Origin: an uncultured Nitrososphaerales archaeon
Lineage (GTDB): Archaea > Thermoproteota > Nitrososphaeria > Nitrososphaerales > Gagatemarchaeaceae
Length of the DNA: 64,000 nucleotides
NCBI GenBank assembly: GCA_963706445.1
Contig: OY970160.1
Location: 1,408,001 to 1,472,000, forward strand
Reading direction: 5' to 3'
Positions 22,846 through 42,705 of the stretch are shown here, piece after piece. The notes beneath the pieces were generated by a model that had not been told where the DNA came from, did not search any database, and saw only the letters and a program-made list of their open reading frames with translations. A program made the position numbers and the translations under genes. Positions within the stretch are counted from its first letter, which is position 1. Every line of letters starts with the position of its first letter.

Positions 22846-23337
22846 TTACTTTGACGACCTGGTGCTGGTTTCTCGGAGCCTGCTCATCTCGGTCAGCTCG
22901 AAGGGGAAGACGACCCACTTGTCAACCACTTCTAGGTAGTATTCGGGCTCGAACTTGCTCCATGGTTTCTTGAACAGGACGGCCGTCTCAAGAAGTTTCG
23001 GGTTCTGTCCATTGAGGTACTTCTTCACAGTCTCCATCGTGTCACCCTGGTCGACAAGATCATCGACCACTAGGATGTTCTTTCCCGCTACACCCTCGCT
23101 GAGAGTCGAGAGGATTTTGGGACTGTTTCTCTGGCCTATCCCTTCATATGATTTCACGTTGATGAAATCGATTGTAACCCCCAGGTGGTCAGAGACCACC
23201 ATGGCAACGGGCATCCCTCCTCTGGCGATCCCGATGACGATATCAAATTTCACTCCTCTGGAACGTACCTTCTCCGCCAAGGCCTGGGCGAGGTTGCCGT
23301 ACTCGGGCCAGCTGATGTACCTGAACTCGGTCAACAA
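22846..23337 (-). CDS. type I purine phosphoribosyltransferase (hypoxanthine/guanine/xanthine type)
   Basis: IGIARGG, VVDDLVDQGDT, KPWS..PEYY, WVVFPFE. Confidence 0.9.
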   Translation of the reverse strand: MLTEFRYISWPEYGNLAQALAEKVRSRGVKFDIVIGIARGGMPVAMVVSDHLGVTIDFINVKSYEGIGQRNSPKILSTLSEGVAGKNILVVDDLVDQGDTMETVKKYLNGQNPKLLETAVLFKKPWSKFEPEYYLEVVDKWVVFPFELTEMSRLRETSTRSSK

Positions 23338-23523: not shown

Positions 23524-24477
23524 TTGTCTGGAGAACTCGTCGTCGTAGCCCTCGGAGGGAACGCCCTTCTTCAGCGTTCGCAGAAGGGTACATTCGATGA
23601 TCAGTATGCCAACGTCAAAAGGACGGCGGAGAAGATCGCCGACCTGGTCCAGGGCGGGTATGAGATCGTGCTCACCCATGGCAACGGCCCTCAGGTCGGG
23701 GCGACGCTCCTGAGGCACGAAGCCGGCAAAGGGCTCGTCCCCCCGCTCCCTCTCGACGCATGCGGTGCCGAAACCCAGGGCTTCATCGGCTACATGATCC
23801 AGCAAGCGCTCAGGAACGTGCTGAAGTCTCGTGGAGTGGACAAGTACGTGGTCACAGTCGTGACGAGGGTCATTGTCGACAAGCATGATCCCGCGTTCGA
23901 GCATCCGACGAAGCCCGTCGGGCCCTTCTACACGAAAGAGGAAGCCGTCCGTCTGAGCCAGAGCATGCCAAACATGACGATCAAGGAAGACGCAGGACGC
24001 GGATACAGAAGGGTTGTACCTTCCCCCGACCCGAAGGTGATAGCCGAGAGGTCTGCCATTCGGACTCTCGTGGACGCGGGCTTCGTGGTAGTGTCGACGG
24101 GGGGCGGAGGGATTCCGATAGTCGAGGAAGATTCGCAAGCAAGGGGGGTAGAAGCGGTGATCGACAAGGACCTTGCCGGCCAGCGCCTCGCCACCTTGAT
24201 CCACGCGAACATCTTCGTGATACTCACGGACGTCGACGGGGCTTACTTGGGTTTCGGAACCCCAAGGCAGGAGCTCATCAAAGAGGTGACGACCGGGAAG
24301 CTGCAAAGATACTTAGACGAAGGACAATTCAAGGAAGGGAGCATGGCACCCAAGGTGCTCGCCGCGATACGTTTCGTCGAAAGCGGCGGAGAAAGGGCGA
24401 TAATAGCAGAGCTTGGAAAGTTGCCTGAAGCGTTGGCGGGCAAGTCAGGTACGCAGGTGGTAGGTCCAGGGGCTTGA
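23524..24477 (+). CDS. arcC: carbamate kinase
   Basis: VALGGNAL, THGNGPQVG, PTKPVGPFY, RRVVPSPDP, GGGGIP, VIDKD, GSMAPKV. Confidence 0.97.
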   Translation: MSGELVVVALGGNALLQRSQKGTFDDQYANVKRTAEKIADLVQGGYEIVLTHGNGPQVGATLLRHEAGKGLVPPLPLDACGAETQGFIGYMIQQALRNVLKSRGVDKYVVTVVTRVIVDKHDPAFEHPTKPVGPFYTKEEAVRLSQSMPNMTIKEDAGRGYRRVVPSPDPKVIAERSAIRTLVDAGFVVVSTGGGGIPIVEEDSQARGVEAVIDKDLAGQRLATLIHANIFVILTDVDGAYLGFGTPRQELIKEVTTGKLQRYLDEGQFKEGSMAPKVLAAIRFVESGGERAIIAELGKLPEALAGKSGTQVVGPGA

Positions 24478-24486
24478 CCTTTCGCC

Positions 24487-25863
24487 TTGGCCGACCCTAG
24501 CTCCGTTCTGATCGAAGACGCCATAATAGTCACCATGGACCCTCGACGGAGGGTCATCGAAGGGGGGCATGTCCTCGTCGAAGGGGGAAGGATATCCGCA
24601 ATCGCTGGGCCGGGTTCGAAGGCGAGACTCAAGGCAGAGCAGACGATCTCGGCGAAAGGGATGGCCGTGATACCGGGACTGATTGACACTCACATCCATC
24701 TGGCCCAGAGCCTCCTGAGAGGGTGCGCAGACGACCTCTCTCTGGTCGACTGGCTGAAGAAAAGGGTCTGGCCCATCCAGGGGTGCTTCACCACGAGCGA
24801 CGGAAGGGTTAGCGCCGAACTCTCGATGCTGGAGATGGTCAAGAGCGGGACCACTTCGTTCGTCGGGGTCGATGTCGTGTCAAGGTATGGGTTCGACGGG
24901 ATAGCGGACGCGGTGGTCGGGGCTGGGATGAGAGGGGCGCTGGCCAAGACGATCATGGACAGCCCAGGATACGGGAGGAAAGGGAGCATGATGCCCGCGG
25001 GGCTCGTGGAAGAGAAAGACGAATGCATCAGAGAAGCGAAATCAATGATCAGGAAGTGGAACAGAATCAAAGGGGGCCGGGTAAGGACCTGGGTAGCCCC
25101 GAGATCCCTTGGCGGGTGCAGCAGGGAGCTCTATGAGGAGGTAGCCGAGCTCGCAAATGAACAGGATACGAGGGTGACGATGCACCTGGCAGAGGTGAGC
25201 GAGGACGTCAAATACGCGAAGGAGAACTTCGGGCTGACTCCTTTCGGGTTCATCGAGAAGGTGAGTCTGGCGGGCCCCCGCTCGCTCTTCGCCCACATGG
25301 TCTGGCTCAGCGACGGCGACGTTGGGAAGGTGGGAAAGACGAAGTCCAACGTGGCGCACTGCCCTTCGTCCAATCTCAAGCTTGCGTCAGGCATTCCAAA
25401 GGTGCCCGAACTGTTGCGGGCGGGGGCGAACCTCGGGCTCGGGTGCGACGGCGCCCCGTGCAACAACTCCCACGACATGATAAGGGAGATGAAACTCGCG
25501 GCAGTGATACAGAAGGGGAGGCTACTCGACCCGCTCACGATGCCCGCCGCGACGGTACTGGAGATGGCGACCCTTGGGGGAGCCCGGGCCATGGGGATGG
25601 AATCGGATGTGGGGTCCATCGAAGTCGGGAAGAGGGCGGACCTGGTGCTCATCGACCTGAAGAAACCCCATCTTGTCCCATACAGAGACATCGTGTCGAA
25701 CTTGGTCTACTCCGCCATGGGGAGCGACGTCGACAGCGTGATGGTGGACGGCAAGCTCCTTCTCCGGCGAGGGAGGGCCCTGACCCTCGACGAAGAGAAG
25801 ATCATGGGTGAGGCGCAGAAGCGGCAGGACGAGCTTATCTCAAGGTCAGGCGTCGGTGCCTAG
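24487..25863 (+). CDS. amidohydrolase, MtaD/DadD-like nucleoside or nucleobase deaminase
   Basis: PGLIDTHIH, MHLAE, AHCPSSNLKLASG, GCDGAPCNN. Confidence 0.88.
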   Translation: MADPSSVLIEDAIIVTMDPRRRVIEGGHVLVEGGRISAIAGPGSKARLKAEQTISAKGMAVIPGLIDTHIHLAQSLLRGCADDLSLVDWLKKRVWPIQGCFTTSDGRVSAELSMLEMVKSGTTSFVGVDVVSRYGFDGIADAVVGAGMRGALAKTIMDSPGYGRKGSMMPAGLVEEKDECIREAKSMIRKWNRIKGGRVRTWVAPRSLGGCSRELYEEVAELANEQDTRVTMHLAEVSEDVKYAKENFGLTPFGFIEKVSLAGPRSLFAHMVWLSDGDVGKVGKTKSNVAHCPSSNLKLASGIPKVPELLRAGANLGLGCDGAPCNNSHDMIREMKLAAVIQKGRLLDPLTMPAATVLEMATLGGARAMGMESDVGSIEVGKRADLVLIDLKKPHLVPYRDIVSNLVYSAMGSDVDSVMVDGKLLLRRGRALTLDEEKIMGEAQKRQDELISRSGVGA

Positions 25864-25875
25864 GAAGTCCGGGCA

Positions 25876-27249
25876 GTGGATCTCCTGGTTACGAACGCTA
25901 GAGTAGTCACCGGCTCCCAGGTCGTCGAGGCAAACATAGGGGTAGAAGACGGGAAAATCGCCTCGGTTTCCCCCAGCCTCCAAGCCACGGGGGCCAGGGT
26001 CATCGATGCGGAGGGGATGATAGTCGTCCCCGGGGGGATAGATGCCCACACCCACATGGAGCTCCCTGTCACTAACACCTCGTCGGCGGACGACTTCTAC
26101 TCGGGGACCGTAGCCGGGGCCTGCGGCGGAATAACGACGATAGTAGATTACGTCGACCCCCAGGCAGGTCAGACGATGCTCGAAGCAGTAGCCGATTACA
26201 GACTGAGGGCGGACAGCAAGGTGGCGGTCGACTACGGCCTGCATATGATGTTCAAGGGGCAGCAACTTCCCGAAATCGACAGGATCCCCGACCTGGTCGA
26301 GGAGGGGATCCCGAGCTTCAAGGTCTACACGGCGTACAGGAAGCGGGGGTTGATGCTGGAAGATCAAGACATCTCAAGGGTGATGAAGAGTGTGGCGTCG
26401 ACCGGGGGGCTGGTAGCCGTGCACGCCGAGAGCGAGGGGATGATCGAGCGCCTGACCAAGGAGAACCTGGCTGTTGGAAACGTGGGGACGAGGTACCATG
26501 CGCTGAGCAGGCCTCCGGCTGCCGAGGCAGAAGCGATATCCAGGGTCACCCGGCTGGCGGACGAAGCCGGGGCGAGGATCTACATCGTCCACCTTTCTAG
26601 CAGGGCGGGGAAGGAGGAGGTCGAGGGGGCGAGGAGGCGCGGGACGAATGTGTTCGCCGAGACATGCCCTCACTACCTGGTCCTCACTGACGATGTCTAC
26701 GAAAGGGAGGACGGACGGAACTTCGTCATGTCACCGGCACTGAAGAAGCCAGAAGATCGCGCCGCCCTCTGGGAAGGGCTGAAGGCAGGTGGGGTCATCG
26801 AGACTGTCGGGAGCGACCACTGCCCGTTCCCGAGCTCGCAGAAGGACTGGGGGATGGACGATTTCACGAAGATACCTAACGGGGTTCCCGGGACGGAGGC
26901 TATCATCCCCATCCTGTACTCAGAAGGGGTGAGGAAAGGGCGAATCTCGATCTACGATATGGTCAGGGTGATATCGGAGGGGCCTGCGAGGCGCTTCGGG
27001 CTCACCCCGTCGAAGGGGTCCATCGCCGTCGGTTCGGATGCAGATTTCGTAGTCATCGACCCGAACAAGCGCGTGAGGATGACCGCGGAGGTGATGCACA
27101 GCAACATCGACTACAGCATCTACGCCGACGTCACGACCGAGGGGTACCCGGTCCTGACGGTGAGCAGGGGGGAGGTCGTGATGGAGGACGGCGAGTTCGT
27201 CGGGAAGAAGGGATGGGGCAGGTTCGTTCCTAGAAGGGCCGCGTCGTAG
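25876..27249 (+). CDS. hydA: dihydropyrimidinase/D-hydantoinase (HyuA-like)
   Basis: PGGIDAHTH, SFKVY (carbamylated Lys), VHAE, IVH, ETCPHYL, GSDHCPF, IPNGVPG. Confidence 0.93.
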   Translation: MDLLVTNARVVTGSQVVEANIGVEDGKIASVSPSLQATGARVIDAEGMIVVPGGIDAHTHMELPVTNTSSADDFYSGTVAGACGGITTIVDYVDPQAGQTMLEAVADYRLRADSKVAVDYGLHMMFKGQQLPEIDRIPDLVEEGIPSFKVYTAYRKRGLMLEDQDISRVMKSVASTGGLVAVHAESEGMIERLTKENLAVGNVGTRYHALSRPPAAEAEAISRVTRLADEAGARIYIVHLSSRAGKEEVEGARRRGTNVFAETCPHYLVLTDDVYEREDGRNFVMSPALKKPEDRAALWEGLKAGGVIETVGSDHCPFPSSQKDWGMDDFTKIPNGVPGTEAIIPILYSEGVRKGRISIYDMVRVISEGPARRFGLTPSKGSIAVGSDADFVVIDPNKRVRMTAEVMHSNIDYSIYADVTTEGYPVLTVSRGEVVMEDGEFVGKKGWGRFVPRRAAS

Positions 27250-27288: not shown

Positions 27289-28653
27289 CTAGCCCAGGGG
27301 CTCCACAGCTTCCGACGGAGATGACCCAAGCCTGCGCCAGAGACCGTCCATGGCCTTCAGCACTTTCGCTTCGGATTTCTGAAGGTCGACCCTCAGGACC
27401 TGCTTGCTTCTCATAATCAATTCGCCGTCCACCACCACGTCCCTCACGTTCGGCCCCTTCAGGCCGTTCACAATGTAGCCGTAGACAGAACCGGCGTAAG
27501 GCGTGGCCAGGAACGACGGACGCACCACGATCAGGTCGGCCCGCTTGCCAGCTTCGAGGGACCCGAGGGACTTCAGCTCATAGGCTTTCGCCGCGTTGAC
27601 GGTGCACATCTCGACGACTTCCTGGGGAGACGGCCTGTTCGGATTCCTCCTCGCCACCCTCTGCAGGAGGAAGGCGGCGCGCATGTTCTCGAACATGTCG
27701 AAGATGTACCCGTCGTTGCCGGCACAGACGTTCACCCCCTTGTCAAGCATCTCCAGAAGGGGAGCGACGCCGACGGCGTTGAGCATGTTGCTCATGGGGT
27801 TGTGGGCAATGCTTGCCGATGAGGCGGCAATCAGATCAATCTCCTCCTCGCTCAGATGGACGCAGTGGGCGAGTACAGACCTCGACGACAGGAGGCCTAC
27901 GTCCTTCAGCCTCTCGACGGACCTCTTGCCATAGCGCTCCATGTTGTGGTAGCCGTCGTTGGGTCCCTCCGAGACGTGGATGGTGAGCGGGACCCTGTGC
28001 TTCTCACTGGCCTCCGCCCCCCGCGAAAGCAGGTCGTCCGAGACGGTGAACGATGCGTGGAGGCTTACCATCCCCATGGCCCTCCCCTTGTCTTTCTTCG
28101 CGATGAACCTCAGACTCTCCTTCAGCCCCCTTCTCCCTTCCTCGATGCTCCTCCTCTCCGTCGCCTCGAATGAGATTATGCCCCTGATGCCAACTTCGTT
28201 CGAAGCCTTCGCGATTTCGTCGAGGGAGCCTTCTATCGAGTTGGGGGCGGAGTATGTGTCCGCAAAGCAAGTCGTCCCGTTCATCAGCGACTCGACGGAC
28301 GCCGACAGGGTCGTCGCATAGGCGTCGGCGTTGGTAAGCGCCTCGTCCACGGGCCACCACACCCTCTGGAGGATCTGAAGGAAGTCTGACGGGGGCTTCA
28401 CGTTCAGCGCTGACCCCCTGAGGGCTATCCCGTACAGATGGGTATGGCCGCAGATGAGCCCCGGCATCACAATGCACCCCCTCGCGTCGATCACCTCGTC
28501 GGGCCCGAAACCCCGGGCGACTCTGTCTGACGGTCCCACGGCAAGTATCCGGCCGTCTTCGATGGCTACGGCTGAATCGTAGATGACTCTCCTGTGTTCG
28601 TCCATGGTCACCACGGTGCCCCCCTTCACGAGGAGTTTGCTTGACAAGGGCAA
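27289..28653 (-). CDS. SsnA-like amidohydrolase
   Basis: PGLICGHTHLY..LRG, FLQILQRVWWPVD (like SsnA LWWRLD), LHASFTVSD, HVSEG, HNPMSNM, GNDG. Confidence 0.85.
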   Translation of the reverse strand: MPLSSKLLVKGGTVVTMDEHRRVIYDSAVAIEDGRILAVGPSDRVARGFGPDEVIDARGCIVMPGLICGHTHLYGIALRGSALNVKPPSDFLQILQRVWWPVDEALTNADAYATTLSASVESLMNGTTCFADTYSAPNSIEGSLDEIAKASNEVGIRGIISFEATERRSIEEGRRGLKESLRFIAKKDKGRAMGMVSLHASFTVSDDLLSRGAEASEKHRVPLTIHVSEGPNDGYHNMERYGKRSVERLKDVGLLSSRSVLAHCVHLSEEEIDLIAASSASIAHNPMSNMLNAVGVAPLLEMLDKGVNVCAGNDGYIFDMFENMRAAFLLQRVARRNPNRPSPQEVVEMCTVNAAKAYELKSLGSLEAGKRADLIVVRPSFLATPYAGSVYGYIVNGLKGPNVRDVVVDGELIMRSKQVLRVDLQKSEAKVLKAMDGLWRRLGSSPSEAVEPLG

Positions 28654-28667
28654 TCACCGACTCTTCG

Positions 28668-29681
28668 CTACGCCAGCGACTTGACCACGTATTCGATGTT
28701 GCCACTGAGTGGAAGGAGTAGTGGGGACTTGCACCCGGCGGCCATGTACTCCTCGATCTTGGCTCTGCACTCTTGAGGCGTCCCCGACGCGGTGAGCATG
28801 CGGACGATCTCGTCTGGCACGATCTTCGTCGCTCTCTCGATGCCCCCTGGCTTGGCTGGCCACCCGCCCATCTCCTTCTGGACGGCGGCAATCAGGTCCT
28901 CGGCCACCCCACTCGCCCTCATGATGTGCGGCTGCTGCCCCAGGGTCATGGTTACATGGCTCTTGGCAAGCTTCACGGCCTTGTCGGAATCCTCGTCCAT
29001 CGAGCATGCGATGAGTTGAGGGGAATCAATCTTGTCGGGGTCCCTTCCAGCCTTCTGAGCCCCGCGCCTGATGCTCTCCCAGGCCTTCTTGTTGTATTCC
29101 GGAGATACGAGGTAGTTCAGCAGGACGCCGTCGGCTATCTCGCCTGCGAGCTCGAGCATCTGGAATCCAGTCCCGCCGATGTATATGGGGACAGCTCTCG
29201 GACCCGCCCCAGTCCCGTGCAGGGTGTCGAGGCTCACGCCGTCCATCTTGACGAACTCCCCCTGGAAGGTGACCTCTTCGGCGTTGAACAGTCGTTTGAT
29301 TACCTGTACGTACTCTCTCATGCACAGTAGGGGCTTGGTCCTGTCTATCCCCACCTTCTTCGCGAGTGGGTCCCACCATGCCCCGAGACCCAGGATGGCC
29401 CTCCCCGCTGAGAGCTCGTCGAGGGTGGCCCAGGTCTGGGCGATTAGGGCGGCGTTCCTAGTCCAGGTGTTTATGACGCCGGCCCCCACCTTGATCCTCT
29501 TTGTGTCCGTCGCGATGGCGGTTACGGGGACGACTGCGTCCCTTGCCAGCCTCGACTCTGCAATCCAGACAGAATCGAACCCATGGTCTTCCGCCACCTG
29601 TGAGAACCTGACCATCTCCCGGACGTGCATGTCCTGGAGGTACAGTCCCAGCCTGCTCAACGAGCCTGGAGCTTTGGACAA
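28668..29681 (-). CDS. LLM-class (luciferase-like, Mer-like, probably F420-dependent) oxidoreductase
   Basis: GFDSVWIAE, GVINTWTRN, ATLDELSAGRAILGLG, PIYIGGTG..MLELAGEIADG. Confidence 0.88.
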   Translation of the reverse strand: MSKAPGSLSRLGLYLQDMHVREMVRFSQVAEDHGFDSVWIAESRLARDAVVPVTAIATDTKRIKVGAGVINTWTRNAALIAQTWATLDELSAGRAILGLGAWWDPLAKKVGIDRTKPLLCMREYVQVIKRLFNAEEVTFQGEFVKMDGVSLDTLHGTGAGPRAVPIYIGGTGFQMLELAGEIADGVLLNYLVSPEYNKKAWESIRRGAQKAGRDPDKIDSPQLIACSMDEDSDKAVKLAKSHVTMTLGQQPHIMRASGVAEDLIAAVQKEMGGWPAKPGGIERATKIVPDEIVRMLTASGTPQECRAKIEEYMAAGCKSPLLLPLSGNIEYVVKSLA

Positions 29682-29844: not shown

Positions 29845-31194
29845 TTGGGAGAGATAACTGCAATCGCCAATGGGGTAGTCATTACAGTCGATCGTAGCGA
29901 CACAATCTACGGAGACGGCGCGGTAATAGTCGAAGATGGAAGGATAATCGATGTTGGTAAGACGGACGAAATCCTGCCAAAGTATAGAAAGGATATTGTC
30001 ATTGATGCGAAGAAGTGCGCAGTGCTACCTGGTTTTGTGAATGCTCACTTTCACTCTGGCACCATCCGAGGAATTGCCGAAGACCTTCCACTGTGGGAGT
30101 GGCTTAGAAGATACATTGATCCGAAGCACCGTGTTCTGACCCCAAGCGATGCCCATGCTTCATCCAGGCTTTGCTACACAGAATCCATCAAAGCGGGCGT
30201 AACCACTGTGCTCGACATGGAGAGGTTCATGGATAGATGTGCTGATTCGGCCGAAGAGGTCGGGCTTAGGGCGGTTCTCGCACCATATGTTTCTGATAAA
30301 TTCGAAGGCTTCGAAAAGCCGGAGGACAACTACAGGCTATTGGCCGAGAGAAATGGCTCGGCGAACGGCAGGGTCAACGTCTGGCTCGGCATGGAGCATC
30401 TGATGTATTGCAGCGAAGAACTCTACAGAAAAGGGGCCGAGCTCGCAAGAAAATACAACGTCGGGATACACACCCACGGGGAAGAGTCAAAAGAGATGGC
30501 AGAGAGGATAACAAAAGAACACGGCGGAAGAAGACCCACGAAGGTTCTGCGCGACTACGGAATCCTAGGGCCACGTACCGTCTTGGCTCACTGCGTCTGG
30601 CTGGATGACGAAGAGATGGGAATAATAGCCGAAACCAAAACCTCCGTAGCTCATTGTCCGGTGAGCAATTTCAAGCTTGCAAGTGGAGTTGCAAGGGTTC
30701 CGGAAATGCTAGGTCTAGGGATAGTAGTGGGCCTTGGAAGTGACGGCATTGAGGAAAACAACAGGATTGACCTCATGCAGGAGATGAAGATGGCTGGACT
30801 GATTCAGAAGGGAACGCATAGAGACGCAACTCTCATGCCCGCGAAAAAGCTGCTTAGGATGGCAACAATCGATGGTGCGACAGCGCTTGGGCTCGGAGGC
30901 GAGGTCGGGTCTTTAGAGAGAGGAAAGAAGGCGGATATCTCGATCCTAGATCTAAATCAACCCCATTTGACACCCGCGCTCACCGGAGAGTTCTTCAATG
31001 TGGTAAGCAACATAGTGTACGCTGCGCAATCTGATGACGTACAAACGGTAATGGTCGACGGTAGAGTGATAATGGAGAATAGAAAGATTGCTCACCTGAA
31101 CGAGCAGGAAATCATTGATGAAGCAACAAAAGCTTCCGTTGGAGTTCTTGAGAGAATAAAGGAACTCGTCCCGCCTGATATCAAGTCGAAGTAA
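29845..31194 (+). CDS. amidohydrolase-family deaminase (low-GC gene)
   Basis: PGFVNAHFH, HTHGEE, HCPVSNFKLASG, GSDG. Real start probably TTG 29845; the ORF-track extension is antisense to the LLM gene. Confidence 0.88.
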   Translation: MGEITAIANGVVITVDRSDTIYGDGAVIVEDGRIIDVGKTDEILPKYRKDIVIDAKKCAVLPGFVNAHFHSGTIRGIAEDLPLWEWLRRYIDPKHRVLTPSDAHASSRLCYTESIKAGVTTVLDMERFMDRCADSAEEVGLRAVLAPYVSDKFEGFEKPEDNYRLLAERNGSANGRVNVWLGMEHLMYCSEELYRKGAELARKYNVGIHTHGEESKEMAERITKEHGGRRPTKVLRDYGILGPRTVLAHCVWLDDEEMGIIAETKTSVAHCPVSNFKLASGVARVPEMLGLGIVVGLGSDGIEENNRIDLMQEMKMAGLIQKGTHRDATLMPAKKLLRMATIDGATALGLGGEVGSLERGKKADISILDLNQPHLTPALTGEFFNVVSNIVYAAQSDDVQTVMVDGRVIMENRKIAHLNEQEIIDEATKASVGVLERIKELVPPDIKSK

Positions 31195-31284: not shown

Positions 31285-32625
31285 GTGACTGATATGACTC
31301 GGGAAGTGGATCTGCTAATCAAGGGTGCAGACATCCTTACTTTGGACCCTAGCCGCCCCGAGCTGCGCAACCATGACGTCGCCATTAAGGATGGGAAAAT
31401 CGTCGAAGTCCAGGCAGGCCTAAGATACGATTCTAAACTTGATGTGGCAGGGAAAGGAAAGGTCGTTCTGCCCGGTCTTGCCGACTGTCACACCCACTGT
31501 TTTCAGATTTTTCTTAGAGGCTCGCTTTCCGCAAGAGACAGAACCATACATCCGATCTGGTTGAAGGTCCTGATGCCGTTTGAAGCGGATATGCAAGAGG
31601 ACGAGGCGCAGGTCAGCGCAGAACTCGCATGCCTTAACATGATTAGAAAAGGGATAACCGCCTTCGCCGACGCAGGAGGGCCCTATCCTCAGACCCTTGC
31701 CAGGGTGGCCGAGGACGCAGGACTCAGGGCAAGGATAACCCACTCGACCATGGACAAAGGACCTGAGAACTACAACCGAGGAATCAAGTACAACAAAAAG
31801 CTGGTCAGCCAACTCAAGGGTCCAAGGGTCAAGGGCTGGTATTCGATTCGACAGATCATGGTCTCGAGCGACGAGCTCATCGAAGAAACCATCGCGGAAG
31901 CGAGGAAGGACGATGTGGGAATCCACATCCATCTTAATGAGGAAACATCTGAAATCGAACATTCGATGACTCGTTGGAACGAAAGACCATTCGAACACTT
32001 CCATTCGAAGGGTTATCTTGATAGCAGAATTTTGGCCGCACACTGCGCTTTCCTCTCCGACAACGAAACGAAGATCATAGCACAAGACTCGCCCAGCATT
32101 GTGCACTGCCCAAAAATCAACATGACCTACATGACTTTCCCCAAGGTTCCAAGGCTCTTGGAACTAGGAGTGAATGTTGCCCTCGGGTCGGACGGGGGGA
32201 GCTATACGGGGCTTGACCTGTTTACGGAGATGAATATCGCGTTAGCAGCCCACGTTGCCAGCTTTGGAGCCCCATATCATGATTACGAAGTAATAACGCC
32301 ACTCGAACTGTTGAAGATGGCTTCGACGAACGGCTACAAGGCCATCAGGCAGATGGATGGGGGGGTTATCAGAACAGGGGCGCTCGCCGACCTAGTCCTG
32401 ATAGACAGGAACCAGGCGCACTTGAGGCCGCTACATGACCTGTCTAACCTGCCACTCTATGCGACGGGTAATGATGTGGTGGATGTGGTTATCGACGGTC
32501 AGGTCATAATGAGAGATGGTCAGGTATTGACCATGGATGAAGAGTCGGTCCTGAAGAGAGCAGAGGATATGGAGCCAGAGGTGCATGAGAGGATAGACCG
32601 TTTCAAACGGAAAAAAGTCGGCTGA
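31285..32625 (+). CDS. amidohydrolase-family deaminase (low-GC gene)
   Basis: PGLADCHTH, HIHLNE, AHC, HCPKIN, GSDGG. Confidence 0.88.
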   Translation: MTDMTREVDLLIKGADILTLDPSRPELRNHDVAIKDGKIVEVQAGLRYDSKLDVAGKGKVVLPGLADCHTHCFQIFLRGSLSARDRTIHPIWLKVLMPFEADMQEDEAQVSAELACLNMIRKGITAFADAGGPYPQTLARVAEDAGLRARITHSTMDKGPENYNRGIKYNKKLVSQLKGPRVKGWYSIRQIMVSSDELIEETIAEARKDDVGIHIHLNEETSEIEHSMTRWNERPFEHFHSKGYLDSRILAAHCAFLSDNETKIIAQDSPSIVHCPKINMTYMTFPKVPRLLELGVNVALGSDGGSYTGLDLFTEMNIALAAHVASFGAPYHDYEVITPLELLKMASTNGYKAIRQMDGGVIRTGALADLVLIDRNQAHLRPLHDLSNLPLYATGNDVVDVVIDGQVIMRDGQVLTMDEESVLKRAEDMEPEVHERIDRFKRKKVG

Positions 32626-32893: not shown

Positions 32894-33691
32894 CTATGGA
32901 GCAACAGCCCCGCTTGTTGAAGAGGAGGTCGAGTGTACGACCTCTTTGTCGGCCTCGGGAAGTTCGTACCACTTCTTCCTCTCTCCGACAGCGGCCCTCA
33001 TCTTCCAACCCATGCTCTTCGGGGCTGCCCTCGATAGACTTCTTCAGGTTCTCCGCTTGCTCCGGATGCTCTCTTCTTCTGTTCCTCTTCGAGGCCGACC
33101 TTCGTTCGCGAATTCAGGGATTTTCGCCAGGTTCGTGGTGAACGTCTTGTAGATCCCCCAGTCCTCGGCGCAGAGCCTAGCGATGTAGCTGCCGTTGATC
33201 TTGTCCTGGGAGTCTTCCGTCCGAGGTCGTGGTCTAGCAGTATTGCCATGACGTCCTTCATGTCCTTCTCGTTGATCTCCACAATCTGAAGCTTGGTCGA
33301 GAGGACAGGTCCGCAAGTGGGAGCGTCTCCCGTTCTCGAGGTCAATCCGCTTCTTGAAGTCAAACTTGTGGCACATTTCGAAGACGTCCAGGAAGACGTC
33401 CACCCGCCTGCGTGTTCGCAGGTCGTTGAAGATCAGCCTGGTGACCTGAAATGCGTTGAATCTCTCTCTCGGCGTGTACCCGAGTTCTTTGAAGAGTTGG
33501 CTGATCTTAGCGGTCTCCTTCCGGTGGCCGATCACGTCGATGTCGACCTCGCGCCTAGCAGCGGAGGCTTCCTGCGGAAGGGCACCGCGTAACCACGGCG
33601 ACCCCCCCGATGAGGCGGAGGGTGATGCCGTTCTCATCGGCGGCTCGAATTATCCGTGTCGGCTTCGTCTTCGAGGTGACTCTAGTGGCAT
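32894..33691 (-). pseudogene. nucleotidyltransferase-like hypothetical gene, multiply frameshifted
   Basis: Fragments in different frames: ITLRLIGG, DIDVIG, FNAFQVTRL, VDVFLDVFEMCH, TKLQIVEINEKDMKD, CAEDWGIYKT, WKMRAAVGERKKWYELPE. Confidence 0.7.
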
Positions 33692-33922
33692 GAGGGAGCG
33701 CTCAGGTTGAATTTCACGAGTCCAAACATGCCGGTCAGTCGAACATGTCTAAGAATGTTTTCGCATCGCCTGGCTGACGTCCGATGGTCTGCCGCATCCC
33801 CGAATTGGCCACTGTGATTGACATCATTGCTAACCCGAACATGTTAGGTAAGCACGGAACTAACAAGGAATTAGTGGAGCTTAAATAACAAATTCCCCGA
33901 TGCTGGACTGCGAAACCTAGCC

Positions 33923-35625
33923 TTGAGCGAGAAGGAGAGGCAAGCGGTGGTACGCACCGGGTAATGCGACGGGGACGGGCAGCCGGTTCACTCCGCGGTT
34001 TTTGTCAGAGACGCAACCGGTCTGGTCAAGAACGTCTCCTTCATCGACACCATCGCCCTGAACCTGAGCAACATGTCGATCGGGGCACTGCTCGGTGTGA
34101 TCGGCATATCCGGGCTCCTCCCGATGCTCTTCGCGGGCCAGGACCTGACAGGGGTGAACCTGGAGTACCTTTGCATCATTGCGTTCCTCGTTTCAGTGCC
34201 CCAGATTGTGATCTACACCATCCTGACGCAGACGCTATCCACGCGCCGGAGGCGACTACGTCTTCGTATCCAGGAATCTCGGCGGATTCGTAGGCAGCGT
34301 AGCCTCTTTCGTGGGATACACGTCGGAAACGACCGCCTATCTTGCGCTGATTGCACTATCGACGGTGTTTGCCATAGGGACGGTGGGGCTCTTCTTCAGC
34401 TCGTCAAGCGTCTTCTACCTGGGTCTCGCGACCCCCCAGGGTGCATATCCAGGTGCGCCGGCTACGCCCGACTGGCAGTTCCTGATCGGCATACTGATCT
34501 TTGCAGTCCTGATCGGCATAAACATCGTGAGGCCGAAGGCAGGGTACAGGCTCGTTTCGATACTGACGATATAGGAATAATCGCGCTGCTCATCGCCATC
34601 GGCACCTATCTCGTCGCTGGCTCCACAGGGGTCCAGAACTACATCAACGGGGTCAGCGGCAACGGTCTCTTCACAAACTCCATCGCCGCCTCACGACCTA
34701 TGCCAACATGGTCGCAGGGAGTCACACCGGAGGACCTGGTGGCTCTACTGGTTTCGCCTTGGGCCCGACGATCTTCCTCCTCCCGCTGATAGCAGCTTTC
34801 ACCTTTCCTTGGCTTAACGCAGCCCAGCTGTCGCAGGCGAAATCAAGGGGAAGAGCGCCGTGAGGTGGAACGTGCCAATCTCGGCGGTTCTGGCGTTCGG
34901 CTTCCTCATCAGCAGCATCTGCTGTCATGTACTGGGCAGGAGGTCAGGCGTTCATCAACGGAGCCTTCTCCACCCCATGCCTACGTGTACGGAAGTCCGG
35001 TCGGGTTCAACTTCTGGACTCTCGCGATGGGGATTTCGGGCAATTCAGTAGTTGCCGCGTTCATAGGCCTCGGCTGGGTCCTGGCGAACCTTGGCGTCCT
35101 CGCATACGGCATCATCGTGATCTCCAGGTACCTGCTGGCCCAATCCTTCGACAGGTTCCTCCCGTCGACGATCTCCGATGTCAACCCGAGATTCGGTTCG
35201 CCGGTAAAGGCGTTCCTCATCTCGTTGGTCGTGACGGTGGTGCTCGTCGGGATCGCCGCCTACAACTACACGACTTCGAGCCTCGGTGCAGGGACGAATC
35301 CTTTGTTCGGGGCAATTCTGGCCTCGATGATCTACTTCATGATCGTTGGAGCCGCGGCTATCGTGCATGCGCATAAAGAAGGAAGACGGCATCACGAGAT
35401 CGATACTGGCGCTGGCGGGCAATCGGAAACATCGTGGTCTTCGGGTTCATCTCCTACCAGTTCCTGACCTATCAGAGCATGTGGTCCATCAATTCGTTCA
35501 CCGTTCAGCTGGCTGGTAGGATGCCTCGTTCTGGGCCATCCTCCTGTTCGTCGGTTCCTACTACTACCACAAGGCGACGCGGGGTCAACATCAACCTGGC
35601 GTACAAGGAAATCCCGCCAGAGTAG
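33923..35625 (+). pseudogene. APC-family amino acid/amine permease, multiply frameshifted
   Basis: N-terminal VFVRDATGLVKNVS, SRYLLAQSFDRFLP..VNPRFGSP and C-terminal AYKEIPPE*, split over at least 5 frame segments. TATA-like TTAAATAA at 33881. Confidence 0.8.
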
Positions 35626-35629
35626 TCTT

Positions 35630-36594
35630 CTAGCCCGACGTCAGCAGGTAGGACCTTATCCTGTCTCCATCTAGCTGAGCCAGGAACCCTCGGAGAATCC
35701 CTTCGCCGTATTCGCTCCCAGGGTTGGCGCAGAGCGTCCTCCCTATCTTGACGATTCCCTTGGACTCGTGGATGTGCCCGTGGATCCCAAGCAGGGGCTG
35801 GTGCGTCTCGATGGCCTTTCTGCACGGCGGAACTCCCGGCCGAGGTCATCTGCACCTGGTTCCCCTTGACGACCACCTTCAGATTCGGCGTCGACCATCG
35901 GCGCCTTGTCGATGAGGGTGTCTGATGGGGGGGACGTGGATGTTGAAGATCGCGGACTTCATGTTCTTCACTCCGGATGCCATTCCTTCGATCTTCTTAC
36001 CCAGTTCGTCCTCGTCGACTTCCCTGGGGCTGTTCCAGGGGGTGTGGTTGGTGTACCCCAGGGTTATCATCTCGTGGTCGCCGTCGATGGACACCACCCT
36101 CCCTTCAGGGTTGACGACGTAGCTTGAGGAGCTCGAGGATCGGGTCGATGTCGAATATGTCGTCGTTCCCGGGCGAGATGTAGCACGTCACGCCGGTCTT
36201 CGCCTAGCCTCTCCTCGGCGAGCTGGACCCAGCTCGCCGACGCGGTCAACCATCGCTTTGTTGAAGGCCGCCTTCACGTTCTTCGGGTCCGCCGAGATCT
36301 CATCGTACTCCTTCTTGGTCATGAGCTGGGTGTAGAAGTCCCGAGTCGCTCGCCTTGGCGACCAGGTCCGTCAACGTCCGCCTTGTTCTTGAGCGTGAGC
36401 TCGTTGCCCTTCGTAACGTGCACCTGTAGGTCCCGTTCCCTTGCTCGACAATCGGAATCGAGCACCTTCCCGGTCACGTCGCCCCCGAGGACGAGCACGT
36501 TGGCGTTGTAGAATTTCGCGGCGTTCAGGAACTTCTTGAAGCATCTGGTCGAGCCGTGGACATCGGTGATGAAGAAGACCCGGGACGTAGCCAC
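35630..36594 (-). pseudogene. Icc-like metallophosphoesterase, multiply frameshifted
   Basis: TDVHGS, GGDVTGK, PGNDD, TPWNSPRE, HVPP, HGHIHES, NPGSEY and YLLTSG* occur in shifting frames. Confidence 0.8.
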
Positions 36595-36650
36595 GCCGAA
36601 CGGCGCCTGTCCGCGAGTAGATTAAGGTGAGGCCTAGTCGGTAGGACTGG

Positions 36651-37676
36651 CTACTTTGCCGTGCCCGCCAGGAGGGCCAGCACCGCCGCCCTGATGTAGA
36701 GGAGGTTCTCCGCCTGGTCGTAGATGACGCTCCGGGGGCCGTCCATGACCTCGTCGTCCGCCTCCTGACCCCTGAAGACCGGGAGGACGTGAGTGACCAC
36801 CCCTCCCTTGCTCATGGTGTCGGCCAGTTTCTTTGTCAGGCGCCAGTCCTTGTGCCTGTTGTGCAGCTCCACCTCTTTCTCCTTGGTGAACCTGTTCATC
36901 CCCGTCATGACGCAGTCGTGGCTGGCCCAGCTCCTTGGGAAGACGACGTCGGCGCCTTTCATCGCCTCTTCGGGGCTGTGGCTGATCTCGAGGCTCCCCC
37001 CTGCGGCTTTGGCGTTGCTCCGGGCCTGCTGGACGAGCTTGTCGTCGAGGTCGAATCCTTCTGGATACGCGAGGACGGTGTCCATGCCGTACTTTGTCGA
37101 AATGAGCATCTCGTCCTGCATGCTCCCCCAGCTCCTGATGTGGTCGCTGTAGGTCCACAGGAGTGCGTACTTCTTCTTCTGAAGGTTCCCCCCGAGCTTC
37201 TCTTTGAGGGTGAGCATGTCTGTTATTGCCTGAGTGGGGTGATAGACGTCGTCGGCCATGTTCACCACCGGAATGTCAGCGTACTTCGCGTACTCCCTGA
37301 TCGCGGCGTTGCCCCTGCCGTAGACGTAGTCGACGGCGGACTCGAGGATCCTCACGCCGAGAGCGTGCCCCATCCGCTCGTACATCTTCGCCATGTCCTT
37401 GATTGACTCCCCCTCGGAGCCCCTCGTGGTCGCGAAGTCGATGAACTGCGAATGTCCCCCGAGAATCGTGGAGGCGGCTTCGAAGCTCGACCGAGTCCTG
37501 GTGGAGGTGTTGTAGAAGAGCATGAAGAAGGTCCTGTTCTTGAAGAGCTCTGGAACGCCGCCGGCCTTGTACTTCCGCTTTATGTCGGTCGCGAAATCCA
37601 TCAGGTAATCGATTTCGTCTCTGGTCCACTCCTGCGTCGATATGAGGTCCTTTCCGCGAAGGTCTTGGGGTCGCAT
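36651..37676 (-). CDS. transcarbamylase (OTC superfamily, YgeW/AOTCase-like) no. 1
   Basis: STRT, HPTQ, FPRSW, HVLP, QAEN. Lacks the DxxxSMG ornithine-binding loop. Confidence 0.88.
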   Translation of the reverse strand: MRPQDLRGKDLISTQEWTRDEIDYLMDFATDIKRKYKAGGVPELFKNRTFFMLFYNTSTRTRSSFEAASTILGGHSQFIDFATTRGSEGESIKDMAKMYERMGHALGVRILESAVDYVYGRGNAAIREYAKYADIPVVNMADDVYHPTQAITDMLTLKEKLGGNLQKKKYALLWTYSDHIRSWGSMQDEMLISTKYGMDTVLAYPEGFDLDDKLVQQARSNAKAAGGSLEISHSPEEAMKGADVVFPRSWASHDCVMTGMNRFTKEKEVELHNRHKDWRLTKKLADTMSKGGVVTHVLPVFRGQEADDEVMDGPRSVIYDQAENLLYIRAAVLALLAGTAK

Positions 37677-37700: not shown

Positions 37701-38195
37701 TTATGAACGTATCAGCCGGTGCGCGAGGGCGACCCCCAGAGCGGTCCTGAGCGCTGCGATCTGCTGCTGGTAGCCGGTGCACCTGCAGAGGTTCCCGGAC
37801 ATCAGCCGCCTGATCTCCGCATCCGAAGCCCCCGGGACGTGCTCGAGGATCCACGACAGGGTGACTATCATCCCTGGAATGCAGTAGCCGCACTGCACGG
37901 CGTCGTGCTCCACGAACGCGCGCTGGACCGGGTTCGGGTCAGACGTCTTCCCCAGCCCTTCCACCGTGACCACTTCGCGCCCGTCTATCTGGGGAGCTAG
38001 GACAAGACAGGAGGTGACAGGCATCCCGTCCAAGAGGACTGTGCAGGCACCGCACTCGCCGGTGTCGCACCCCTTCTTCACCCCCGTCGTCCCCGCGACA
38101 TCATGCAGGTAGTCGCAGAGGGTCTGGTTCGGTTCGATCTCGTCGTTTCTCTTCGCGCCGTTGAGCTTGAAGCTCAACCTCAACCTGCCCTTCAA
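37701..38195 (-). CDS. Xdh/Cox-family 2Fe-2S small subunit
   Basis: GCDTGECGACTV..SC, QCGYC, NLCRCTGY. Confidence 0.95.
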   Translation of the reverse strand: MKGRLRLSFKLNGAKRNDEIEPNQTLCDYLHDVAGTTGVKKGCDTGECGACTVLLDGMPVTSCLVLAPQIDGREVVTVEGLGKTSDPNPVQRAFVEHDAVQCGYCIPGMIVTLSWILEHVPGASDAEIRRLMSGNLCRCTGYQQQIAALRTALGVALAHRLIRS

Positions 38196-39085
38196 CGGGT
38201 CCTATCCTCCGAGAGCAACTGGATGATGAGCCTCCTGGTCAGCACGTGGACGAGGCGCTTTCGGTAACGCGCGCTGGCCCTGATGTCGGATATCGGCTTC
38301 GCATCTTCTCCGGCGAGAGCAGCTACCTTCTCTGCTTGCTCAGCGTTCGCTTCGCTCCCTGCCATCGCCCCCGACGCGGTCTCGGCCAGAATGGGGGTGG
38401 GGGCCACGGCGCCAAGCGCGACCCTGCCGGCCCCGAACCTTCCGTCGTGGAGGGTGGCCACGACAGCCACGGAGACCGCGGAGAGCACGTTCTCGTTCCT
38501 CACGGCGGCCCTAGTCCAGACGCTCCGGACCTCCTCGATGGCGGGGATCTCCACCGATGAGATGATCTCGCCGACCTGGAGGGAGTTCCTTTTCGGACCG
38601 GTGAAAATGCTCTGGACCGGCAGAGTCCTCTTCCCCGACCTGCTGAGAATGGTGACGTCTGCGCCCAGCGCAATAAGCGGAGGAGCGGAGTCGGCCGCAG
38701 GGGACGCCGTCGCGAGGTTGCCTCCCAGGGTCGCTATGGTCCTGATCTGGAGGGTCCCTACGTTCGCCGACGCTTCACGAAGAGCGTTGGCGTACCTTCG
38801 CACCAGGGGGCTTTCCTCGATCTCCGAGAAAGTGGCCAAGGCGCCGATGCACAGGACTCCATTGCCGACGCTGATTCCTCCAATATCGCTCCTGAGGTGG
38901 CGCAGGTCGATCACCACCTTGGGTGCTACAGTCCGCTCCTTGAGCGCGACGGTGAGATCGGTGCCTCCGGCTATGATCGCCGCGTCCTTGCCGTGAACCG
39001 CGAGAACCTCGAACACCTCGGAGAGGGTCGTCGGGGCAAGATACTCGAACCGAGGGATGGGAGCCAGGTACTGGAATGATTTCAA
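38192..39085 (-). CDS. Xdh/Cox-family FAD-binding subunit
   Basis: AGGTDL, QIRTIATLGGNL, ASPAADS, PISDIRASARYR. Confidence 0.95.
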   Translation of the reverse strand: MKSFQYLAPIPRFEYLAPTTLSEVFEVLAVHGKDAAIIAGGTDLTVALKERTVAPKVVIDLRHLRSDIGGISVGNGVLCIGALATFSEIEESPLVRRYANALREASANVGTLQIRTIATLGGNLATASPAADSAPPLIALGADVTILSRSGKRTLPVQSIFTGPKRNSLQVGEIISSVEIPAIEEVRSVWTRAAVRNENVLSAVSVAVVATLHDGRFGAGRVALGAVAPTPILAETASGAMAGSEANAEQAEKVAALAGEDAKPISDIRASARYRKRLVHVLTRRLIIQLLSEDRTR

Positions 39086-41373
39086 GTCCGGCCGGACCTC
39101 TCATCAATCGCTTCAGATACCCTTTCGGGCGTGAAGGGGAATCGGCGGATGGGGAACCCAAGTGCGTTGTATATTGCGTTCCCGACCGCGCCTGCCACGG
39201 GCTCAATCCCCGCTTCGCCGACCCCCTTGGCGCCGAACGGCCCGAACTCGTCCGGCGCTTCGACGATTATGGTCTTGATCGTCGGCACGTCTGCCGCCGT
39301 GGGGATGTGGTAGTCCAGGAACGTCTTGTTCCTGATCACCCCGTCTTTCAGAATCAGTTCCTCCATGAGGGCGTAGCCAAGACCCTGCGCCACTCCCCCG
39401 ATAATCTGGCTCTCGTATTGCTCCCGCACCACGACGGTCCCGGAATCGTGCGCGGCGATATAGTTGATGACGTCCACCTTGCCGAGCTCTGTGTCCACCT
39501 CCACCTCCGCCACGTGGACTCCGAACGCGTATGAGGGCGCCAGGTCGCCGTGGCCGGCACTCATGTCCCAGAGGGGAAGGGGCTTGAACACCTTCCCTTC
39601 CTCCTTGAGGCTCATCCTCCGTCTTTGGCACTCCGCCACGAGCTCGGCGAACCCGACCCGCTCGTTCTTGTGCCCCAGGCGAACGGCCGAGTCTTCTTCG
39701 AAGGAGATCTCCTCGGCTGGGCACGACAGCATGTCAGAGGCGACCAGCGAGAGCTTTTGCCTGAGCTTCTCTGCCGCCAGGAGTATCGCCTTGCCCCCGA
39801 ACACAGTGCTCCTGGAGGCCACCGTTGGACCTGAATCTGGGACGAGGTCGGTGTCCGGCAGGATGACCTCAGCCCTGTCCGGTCTGGTCCCCAGAACCCG
39901 GGAGACTATGCTCACGAAGCCGGTGTGGATCCCCTGCCCGTACTCGGTCAGGCTCGATTTGACCAGCACACGGCCTTCTTCCGTTATCTCAACAGACGCC
40001 GTGGCGGCGTCAGCTTCGCCGTTCAGACCCTCGGGGTGGATGGTGCATGCCATGCCGATCCCGCGCCTCTTCGTCCCCGTCCCTGGCCCAGCCCTCCGTT
40101 TCGATTCCCACCCCGAAGCTTCACTGGCCTTGATGATGCACTCCTCCAAGCCTACTCCTCCTGGAAGAATCTGTCCCGTCGGCGTGATCGCCCCTTCCCT
40201 GAGGACGTTGAGGAGCCTGAACTCAACCGGGTCTATCCCGATGGATTCCGCCGCCTCGTCCATCTGTAGCTCCGCCGCGAACGACGCCTGAGGCTTACCG
40301 AACCCCCTGAAGGCTCCGGTGGGCACGTTGTTGGTGTACGCCACCTCTCCCTCGACGTGCACGTTCGGCACGACATAGGGGCCGGCTGCCACGATGACCG
40401 CGACGAAGAGGACCCGCTCGCTAAGGGAGGCGTAGGCGCCCCCGTCTCCGAGTATCCGGGCCCTGACTGCAATTATCTTCCCATTGGATGTCACTCCCAT
40501 CTCCCGTTCGAATGTCATCGGGTGACGCTTAGGATGGAACGCGGCCGACTCTTTCCTTGAGAATGCCAAAAGTGCAGGCCTCTTGGTAAGCCAGGCCCCA
40601 AGCGCGGCCATGGCGCAGACTTCGTCTGGGGCGTCCTGCTTCGCTCCGAACCCGCCCCCGGTGGGCGCCTGTATGATGCGGACGTTCGGGGCCGCACCCC
40701 CCATGACGGTGGACACCGCCTTCTTGACCATGAATGGGTTCTGCATCGAGCCGAGGACGACGACGCCGTCCTTCTTTGGGTAGGCGAGCGCAGCTTCGGT
40801 CTCCAGGTACGCGTGCTCCTGGACTGGAGTCCTGTAGACCCCCCTTACCACCGAGTCTGCTTTCGCAAGTCCCTTCGGGGCGTCTCCGAAGTTCACAAGG
40901 TGCCTCGCGGTGAGGTTCCCTGAGACATGAATGGCGGGGGCGCCCGGTCGCAGCGCCTCCTCTGGGGTGAAGACGGCTGGGAGCTGTTCGTAGTCCACCC
41001 TGACCGCCTGGACGCCAAGTTCGGCGGACTCCGGCGTGTCAGCGACGACGAGCGCCACCGAATCTCCGACGAATCTCACCTTGTCGGGGCAGAGCAGCGG
41101 CCTGTCCTGGACGACGTAACCGATGTAGTTGGACCCAGGAACGGACCTGGCCGTCGCGACCTTCACGACCCCCTGGACTCGTTCTGCAGCGGAGACGTCG
41201 ATGCGTCTAATCAGGGCGTGAGGGTGTGGGGACCTGACAACACGGACGTAGAGGGCATCCTCATGGATGTTGTCCGTCGTGTACTTGGTTTCGCCCGTCG
41301 CTTTCTCGAGGGCGTCGATCCTCGTCACCCCCTTGGAGCGGAGGAGGGACTCTTCGAGCCTCTGCTCGGTCAT
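39082..41373 (-). CDS. Xdh-family molybdopterin-binding large subunit no. 1
   Basis: QEHAYLE, GGGFGAK, AFRGFG, EYGQG, TVASRS, AKGVGE. Confidence 0.95.
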   Translation of the reverse strand: MTEQRLEESLLRSKGVTRIDALEKATGETKYTTDNIHEDALYVRVVRSPHPHALIRRIDVSAAERVQGVVKVATARSVPGSNYIGYVVQDRPLLCPDKVRFVGDSVALVVADTPESAELGVQAVRVDYEQLPAVFTPEEALRPGAPAIHVSGNLTARHLVNFGDAPKGLAKADSVVRGVYRTPVQEHAYLETEAALAYPKKDGVVVLGSMQNPFMVKKAVSTVMGGAAPNVRIIQAPTGGGFGAKQDAPDEVCAMAALGAWLTKRPALLAFSRKESAAFHPKRHPMTFEREMGVTSNGKIIAVRARILGDGGAYASLSERVLFVAVIVAAGPYVVPNVHVEGEVAYTNNVPTGAFRGFGKPQASFAAELQMDEAAESIGIDPVEFRLLNVLREGAITPTGQILPGGVGLEECIIKASEASGWESKRRAGPGTGTKRRGIGMACTIHPEGLNGEADAATASVEITEEGRVLVKSSLTEYGQGIHTGFVSIVSRVLGTRPDRAEVILPDTDLVPDSGPTVASRSTVFGGKAILLAAEKLRQKLSLVASDMLSCPAEEISFEEDSAVRLGHKNERVGFAELVAECQRRRMSLKEEGKVFKPLPLWDMSAGHGDLAPSYAFGVHVAEVEVDTELGKVDVINYIAAHDSGTVVVREQYESQIIGGVAQGLGYALMEELILKDGVIRNKTFLDYHIPTAADVPTIKTIIVEAPDEFGPFGAKGVGEAGIEPVAGAVGNAIYNALGFPIRRFPFTPERVSEAIDERSGRT

Positions 41374-42689: not shown

Positions 42690-42705
42690 CGGATCCGGAT
42701 CGCGC

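Follow-up and report, generated by a model that had tools for sequence, protein, structure and literature searches.

A luciferase-like oxidoreductase, predicted to use F420, is paired with an SsnA-type amidohydrolase in a purine-catabolism island of a Nitrososphaerales archaeon

The reductive (2,8-dioxopurine) pathway of urate breakdown was solved in two studies in 2025, one of which was that of Li et al. (2025; PMC12507026). In this pathway, urate is reduced to 2,8-dioxopurine by XdhD/DOPDH, 2,8-dioxopurine is reduced with NAD(P)H by YgfK (DOPOR), and the ring is opened by SsnA. Product formation required YgfK and SsnA together, and thermodynamic coupling of the two steps was suggested (Li et al., 2025; PMC12507026). 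For Chloroflexota SsnA clusters, a luciferase-family, F420-dependent reductase of 2,8-dioxopurine ("yanthine") was proposed to take the place of YgfK/UacX (Li et al., 2025, Life Metab; PMC12507026). Here, we analyzed a 64,000-nucleotide stretch of the genome of an uncultured Nitrososphaerales archaeon (GCA_963706445.1, contig OY970160.1, positions 1,408,001 to 1,472,000; hereinafter referred to as the window), in which a gene encoding a Mer-like oxidoreductase of the luciferase-like monooxygenase (LLM) class (337 aa; positions 28668-29681, minus strand) is directly followed by a gene encoding an SsnA-type amidohydrolase (454 aa; positions 27289-28653, minus strand). Open reading frames (ORFs), profile searches, an AlphaFold2 model, Foldseek searches, and the orthogroup with its gene neighbourhoods pointed to the LLM protein as a predicted F420H2-dependent purine-ring (2,8-dioxopurine) reductase. 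Profiles, comparison with Escherichia coli SsnA, and a tree identified its partner as a predicted hydrolase of the reduced purine ring.

The LLM of the window belongs to PF00296 and is encoded no more than 15 genes from a member of the SsnA family, and its cluster contains neither YgfK nor UacX; this is the setting considered by Li et al. for Chloroflexota. The initial annotation of this locus had put forward the reaction as a new activity for the LLM family; as an idea, it had already been proposed in that study (PMC12507026). The network of Li et al. covered bacteria only, and its text contained neither archaea nor cof genes. In the literature found, F420 was tied to 2,8-dioxopurine or isoxanthine only by Li et al., and no paper was found that joined LLM, F420, xanthine dehydrogenase (XDH), and carbamate kinase. 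Barba et al. (2013) mentioned neither the LLM nor these archaeal clusters. New here are the occurrence in a member of the Nitrososphaerales, counts of co-inheritance for two lineages of archaea, the comparison with Mer residue by residue, and the missing FO synthase.

The ORF list and the sequence bore out the gene arrangement given in the initial annotation, in which the LLM gene ended 14 nt before the SsnA-like gene on the same strand. The LLM gene terminated with TAG (28670-28668), and the SsnA-type gene started with TTG at 28653; with an alternative in-frame TTG start at 28647, the spacer would be 20 nt. The 14-nt spacer (28654-28667, minus strand) held a Shine-Dalgarno-like GGTGA (28658-28654), and the motif GAGG was read upstream of the LLM start (29693-29690, minus strand). 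The sole promoter-like element noted for the pair was TTTAAAT (29721-29715, minus strand), located ~37 nt upstream of the LLM start, which resembles an archaeal TATA box and may function as one. The short gap and the TTTAAAT upstream of the LLM gene suggest that the two genes are co-transcribed.

The LLM protein matched the Pfam family Bac_luciferase (PF00296; 7.7e-71, 239.5 bits), and its 16 best NCBIfam matches were all F420-class LLM families, with F420_mer first at 207.6 bits; the best flavin mononucleotide (FMN)-type family reached 55 bits. Its scores were under the Mer equivalog cut-offs of both TIGR03555 (207.6 vs. 348.7 bits) and NF002619 (204 vs. 276 bits). The closest solved sequences were Mer with F420 (1z69; E 8e-48), followed by FGD, Adf, and fHMAD, and the first FMN enzyme among these matches was SsuD (1.5e-11). 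The AlphaFold2 model (predicted local distance difference test score, 87.4) had as its top Foldseek match jMer with F420 (8qpl; template modelling [TM] score, 0.86; 32% identity), and the ~30 top matches were all F420 LLM enzymes. RutA matched the model with a TM score of 0.69-0.70 and 16-17% identity.

Residues of the LLM were mapped by gap-free alignment to jMer, whose residue roles were described by Gehl et al., and invariance was judged in 12 family members. Gly61-Val62 of jMer, the non-prolyl cis-peptide backstop under F420 after beta3, corresponded to G68-V69, and Asn178, which contacts the deazaflavin at the end of beta6, corresponded to N189 within a conserved ADGVLxN motif; both positions were invariant in the family. 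At the positions that bind the pterin C1 carrier in Mer, Asp96 was replaced by W103, which lies in an invariant GAWW[D/E] motif, and Phe233 fell in a gap beside an invariant GQQPH motif. The catalytic Glu6 of Mer was not covered by the aligned block; from the strand register, its counterpart would be Leu13 or Tyr14, probably Tyr14. Since the F420 contacts were kept and the pterin-binding residues were changed, this is the pattern expected of an F420 enzyme with a different substrate, and the LLM is predicted to use F420. The genome encodes six LLM genes. In a tree (FastTree, as for all trees here), all 83 LLMs of the orthogroup formed one short-branched clade far from the five other LLMs of the genome, and the window LLM and the LLMs of the Chloroflexota clusters (53-57% identity) fell in one clade with a support of 99.

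The SsnA-type protein had SsnA as its top NCBIfam match (NF005540, 375.6 bits; TIGR03314, 350.9 bits), and the next family scored 285 bits. When E. coli SsnA was compared with the whole genome, the window protein ranked first (31.6% identity, 192 bits), followed by a paralog with 94 bits. In the tree, it grouped with E. coli SsnA and was separated from three other amidohydrolases of the island (AH1-3) with a support of 99 that is to be read with caution because of long branches.

The expectation that ygfK would be excluded where LLM and ssnA occur agreed with the searches. YgfK was not found in the genome, where the best match was a GltD-like partial domain (245 bits vs. a cut-off of 835), in 301 Nitrososphaeria genomes, including 23 with SsnA, or in 82 LLM loci. 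The sole DHO_dh gene of the genome, presumably pyrD, was located at 89 kb, far from the island. No DHO_dh match was detected in the 82 LLM loci with the PyrD sequence of the genome as the only probe, which a distant PydA could escape. No PydA/PreA-type or UacX-type gene was present in the island.

To describe the conservation of the pair, relatives of the LLM were collected by a scan of 185,579 species genomes, in which more than 592 were found; the best 80 were used for neighbourhood counts. These 80 (52-85% identity), from at least 8 phyla, belonged to one tight orthogroup (52-86% identity) and occurred in Nitrososphaeria, Bathyarchaeia, Halobacteria, Chloroflexota, Actinomycetota, Acidobacteriota, Armatimonadota, and Methylomirabilota. 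Across the two domains, identity was 52-57%, with many invariant pocket residues. Further, homologues with 56-96% identity were plentiful in metagenomes and in Nitrososphaerota metagenome-assembled genomes (MAGs), whereas the exact LLM of the window had no entry among public assemblies. An SsnA homologue was encoded within 10 kb of the LLM in 46 of the 80 loci, and in 27 of the 39 with full flanks. The molybdenum (Mo) subunit of XDH was found in 37 loci, HyuA in 10, and at least one pathway gene in 57. SsnA directly adjoined the LLM on the same strand in 19/80 loci, in both gene orders, with the LLM first in Nitrososphaeria and SsnA first in Actinomycetota. In the loci of Caldarchaeales-type MAGs, the LLM gene, ssnA (with a 3-nt gap in locus L014), and three xdh genes were consecutive, followed by genes for a transcarbamylase, carbamate kinase, and both of the pyridoxal phosphate (PLP) enzymes described below.

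Within the family of the window archaeon (n = 81), both genes were present in the same 6 genomes, that is, the one studied here and five others, and were always adjacent; the gaps in the five relatives were 8-33 nt. Neither gene was present in 72 genomes, and only an LLM, 49-51% identical, in 3. In a sample of the class Nitrososphaeria (n = 301), 23 genomes contained the LLM and 23 contained SsnA, with both in 21. The Halobacteriales (n = 201) provided an independent lineage, in which all 14 genomes with SsnA carried an LLM of at least 74% identity on the same contig, and one fragmentary genome had the LLM only. The LLM and SsnA trees were parallel in topology, with the main groupings in common. 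Counts are given without P-values because related genomes are not independent. The pairing of LLM and SsnA is not due to chance. The adjacency put forward in the initial annotation was thus not unique to this genome, being seen in the five family relatives, Caldarchaeales-type archaea, and Actinomycetota.

A second haloarchaeal LLM subgroup, ~50% identical to the LLM of the clusters, was observed in genomes lacking SsnA (G404, G428, G451, G510, G520, G541, G544, and G553). Within this LLM lineage, the subgroup may represent a paralogous function.

The genome consists of one closed contig of 1,817,757 bp, in which the F420 synthesis genes called for by the proposed activity were sought. A cofC-cofD-cofE operon was found outside the window (G000:C1:965275-967521), with all three genes above the cut-offs, and a second cofE and two Fno genes were also above the cut-offs. 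Among LLM carriers elsewhere, CofD was above the cut-off in all five of the diverse genomes searched. cofG was present in the Haloarcula and actinobacterial MAG carriers and was not detected in the Thermoflexus, Bathyarchaeota, and HR01 carriers, which are MAGs of unknown completeness. Between ssnA and the LLM gene of the Thermoflexus locus (L068, 6193-9953), a stretch of 3.8 kb encoded Fno, CofE, a nitroreductase-family protein, CofD, and CofC. Of the 33 Chloroflexota loci, 27 had at least two members of this Fno-CofE-nitroreductase-CofD-CofC set immediately upstream of the LLM, and in the Chloroflexota loci with ssnA the Fno-cof module filled the interval between ssnA and the LLM gene.

The Chloroflexota module comprises the building of the F420 tail and its recharging, without cofG/cofH. 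Downstream of the LLM in the Thermoflexus locus, before an xdhD-like gene, an 864-aa protein without a Pfam match was encoded (L068, 11532-14126); it had a counterpart (34-61% identity) in the corresponding place of 8 further Chloroflexota loci.

Taken together, we consider it probable, at roughly 0.65, that the LLM is an F420H2-dependent reductase of a purine of the reductive urate pathway, most likely 2,8-dioxopurine, and a non-homologous replacement of YgfK/UacX. The cofactor use of the LLM, its substrate, the direction of the reaction, and the coupling to SsnA are what we infer from sequence comparison and modelling. In the proposed mechanism, Fno would use NADPH to form F420H2, from which the LLM would transfer a hydride to an electrophilic carbon of the oxopurine, which by analogy with YgfK would be C6 of 2,8-dioxopurine. 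The presumably co-expressed SsnA would then hydrolyse the reduced ring and so pull the unfavourable reduction, as reported for YgfK/SsnA, and HyuA, the transcarbamylases, carbamate kinase, and the PLP enzymes would finish the route. The suggestion in the initial annotation that an F420H2-dependent purine-ring reductase acts here in place of YgfK was supported in its comparative part, by the adjacency, the lack of YgfK, and the F420 genes. Its substrate part stayed presumptive, and the XDHs of the window have no Glu606 insertion.

Several observations weigh against this reading. The FO synthase genes cofG and cofH were not found in the genome, either with hidden Markov models or by tblastn with the CofG and CofH of relatives, and a search of 18 further genomes of the genus found cofG in only one. 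The earlier statement that Nitrososphaerota make F420 therefore held for cofC, cofD, cofE, and Fno and did not hold for FO synthase, in this genome or in most of these relatives. As FO synthase was not found, the organism probably imports Fo, while being able to extend it and to recycle F420. This suggests that in the lineage of the window archaeon F420 is built from scavenged Fo, and its supply would hinge on Fo uptake. The SsnA-type protein was under the curated cut-offs (375.6 vs. 444 bits for NF005540; 350.9 vs. 455.5 bits for TIGR03314). No SsnA was within reach in 34 of the 80 LLM loci, many of which were cut by contig ends. In other families of Nitrososphaeria (f20, f15, and f19), LLM and SsnA co-occurred unlinked; the two genes were 193 kb apart in genome G092 (C2:76399-77724 and 269404-270387), and in locus L016 the LLM adjoined genes for ribosomal protein L40e and the small subunit of a DNA polymerase. 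The Glu606 insertion was missing from the large subunit of both XDHs of the window (39082-41373 and 46055-48571), so that the substrate reduced in this archaeon may differ from 2,8-dioxopurine. In addition, no later paper testing the replacement proposed by Li et al., and none assaying a member of the LLM orthogroup, was found in the literature.

The question of the substrate turns on the XDH partners. Glu606 of E. coli XdhD has been linked to the formation of 2,8-dioxopurine (Li et al., 2025; PMC12507026), and in an alignment of XDH large subunits, with loci L068, L065, and L067 among those compared, it was located in an insertion. This insertion was present in the XDHs of the Chloroflexota and haloarchaeal clusters; like the XDHs of the window, E. 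coli XdhA and the Caldarchaeales and actinobacterial cluster XDHs were without it. Either the XDHs without the insertion make 2,8-dioxopurine in another way, or the LLM substrate differs in those lineages. The LLM might thus be F420-dependent and act in the purine pathway on another substrate or at another step, such as the direct reduction of xanthine, urate, or 6,8-dioxopurine, or of a later intermediate. This is consistent with window XDHs that have no XdhD-type insertion and might not form 2,8-dioxopurine, with the similarity of the XDH in the compared Caldarchaeales-type operons, where it follows LLM-ssnA, to the second XDH set of the window (47-51% identity, vs. 40-41% to the first), and with the three extra TRZ/ATZ amidohydrolases of the island. 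Nevertheless, we regard it as unlikely: the tightness of the LLM orthogroup, which is common to Chloroflexota and to haloarchaea whose XDH has the insertion, argues for a single substrate, and the most constant partner of the LLM is SsnA, whose known substrate is the product of YgfK.

It is quite improbable that the LLM replaces PydA and reduces uracil or thymine, with the HyuA-type dihydropyrimidinase opening the ring. The chemistry would be analogous, the HyuA-type gene passes TIGR02033, and the island has no PydA/PreA-type gene, but the LLM was partnered by SsnA in 46/80 loci and by XDH in 37/80, against 10/80 for HyuA, and the island encodes an adenine deaminase and a purine phosphoribosyltransferase, with no beta-ureidopropionase-type gene seen. 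An FMN-dependent, O2-using monooxygenase of the RutA/SsuD kind, acting by oxidative ring cleavage or hydroxylation, would share PF00296, would fit the missing FO synthase, and has a precedent in RutA, which works on a pyrimidine ring. We consider it very unlikely, given 55 bits for the FMN family against 208 for Mer, a TM score of 0.69-0.70 to RutA against 0.86 to Mer, the invariant F420 Gly-Val backstop and Asn, the cof/Fno genes beside the Chloroflexota orthologue, and no flavin reductase partner seen adjoining the LLM; a RutA-like identity was rejected as unlikely on the low FMN-family score and the poor superposition on RutA. The least probable possibility, for which we see hardly any room, is that the LLM is Mer or another housekeeping F420 enzyme and that its adjacency to ssnA is meaningless. 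Mer was its best named match, and housekeeping genes surround the orthologue in some Nitrososphaeria. Identity with Mer was rejected on the score (207.6 vs. 348.7 bits) and the changed C1-carrier residues, with Asp96 and Phe233 not kept and Glu6 probably not; the conserved linkage and co-inheritance, with a patchy distribution strictly common with SsnA in two independent lineages, argue strongly against a housekeeping role of any kind.

The LLM-ssnA pair was located inside a purine-catabolism island of ~28 kb, from ~22.8 to 50.4 kb of the window. Profile searches and comparisons of the E. coli K-12 reference proteins against the whole genome showed that the best genome-wide matches of E. coli SsnA, HyuA, and YqeA were all inside the island (31.6, 39.6, and 46% identity, respectively). 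The island began with a purine phosphoribosyltransferase gene (22846-23337, minus strand), followed by genes on the plus strand for a YqeA-like carbamate kinase (23524-24477; TIGR00746, 426 bits, above the cut-off), a TRZ/ATZ-family amidohydrolase that is a probable purine deaminase and was outside the SsnA clade in the tree (AH1; 24487-25863), and a HyuA-type D-hydantoinase/dihydropyrimidinase (25876-27249; TIGR02033, 488.8 bits vs. a cut-off of 393), which is convergent with ssnA. Divergent from the LLM gene, two further TRZ/ATZ-family amidohydrolases were identified by profiles and the tree (29854-31194 and 31285-32625, plus strand). Beyond these were a transcarbamylase of the ornithine transcarbamylase (OTCase) fold (transcarbamylase 1; 36651-37676, minus strand), a first XDH set of 2Fe-2S, flavin adenine dinucleotide (FAD), and Mo subunits (37701-41373, minus strand), genes for a ThrC-like and a CysK/SbnA-like PLP enzyme that are candidate substitutes for YgeX (41436-43737, minus strand), a second OTCase-fold transcarbamylase (43753-44829, minus strand), a second XDH set of FAD, 2Fe-2S, and Mo subunits (44875-48571, plus strand; assigned by profiles and alignment), and an adenine deaminase (48609-50378, minus strand).

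The two transcarbamylases had 36% identity to one another and 30-32% to E. coli YgeW (32% for transcarbamylase 1). There was no YgeY-type M20 peptidase in the island, and E. coli YgeY had only a weak match outside it. Both ureido groups might be split by phosphorolysis, yielding two carbamoyl phosphates for carbamate kinase. E. coli YgeX had no match anywhere in the genome, and the ThrC-like and CysK/SbnA-like genes occupied the place expected of YgeX; such genes were found in 20/80 and 19/80 LLM loci, respectively, in Chloroflexota, Actinomycetota, Halobacteria, and Nitrososphaeria. It is conceivable, if doubtful, that LLM-SsnA in Nitrososphaerota belongs to a distinct archaeal pathway, in which F420 would be made from scavenged Fo, an XDH without the insertion would provide another entry or another route to 2,8-dioxopurine, two transcarbamylases would harvest both ureido groups, and ThrC- and CysK-like enzymes would stand in for YgeY/YgeX. 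The region that separates the third amidohydrolase from transcarbamylase 1 (32900-36600) contained nothing but short, interrupted ORFs, including a fragment of an amino-acid permease (34865-35467); they look like frameshifted genes or assembly errors. GC content fell to 0.51-0.55 at 30-34 kb of the window.

If confirmed, the proposed activity would make the LLM the first enzyme known to use F420 in nucleobase catabolism, and it would add to YgfK and UacX a third, unrelated enzyme for the difficult dearomatisation of the ring in anaerobic urate breakdown. Members of the orthogroup occur widely in Archaea and Bacteria of soil, hot springs, hypersaline habitats, and the subsurface; in that case the reductive purine pathway, which has until now been studied in gut bacteria, would serve broadly in the environment for the use of nitrogen-rich purines. 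Purine use by this archaeon would be tied to an external deazaflavin, Fo. As a small protein without an Fe-S cluster that is probably oxygen-tolerant, the LLM could also be of interest for urate-degrading strains, whose hosts would need F420.

Compared with known systems, the window LLM was closest to the predicted reductase of Chloroflexota (isoxanthine/yanthine reductase), with which it shares PF00296, an SsnA neighbourhood without YgfK and UacX, and one clade. It differs in its archaeal host, in being directly joined to ssnA in a predicted operon, without Fno, CofE, the nitroreductase, CofD, and CofC in between, and in an XDH partner without the XdhD-type Glu606 insertion. Like the gene for YgfK/DOPOR of E. 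coli and Clostridium sporogenes, the LLM gene is located directly upstream of ssnA, and the same two-electron reduction of the ring, pulled by SsnA, is predicted. The two proteins are not homologous: YgfK has 1032 aa, carries Fe-S, FAD, and FMN, and takes its electrons from NAD(P)H, whereas the LLM is a TIM-barrel protein of 337 aa without Fe-S, for which F420H2 is the predicted donor. With Mer (8qpl, 1z69), the LLM shares the fold, the Gly-Val backstop, and the Asn at the end of beta6, but it is under the equivalog cut-off and its pterin-binding residues are replaced. Finally, it resembles UacX, a PydA-type protein (DHO_dh, PF01180) of the uricolytic clusters of Clostridioides difficile, in being a non-homologous replacement of YgfK next to an SsnA pathway, whereas UacX has another fold, contains FMN, and has ferredoxin as its proposed donor.

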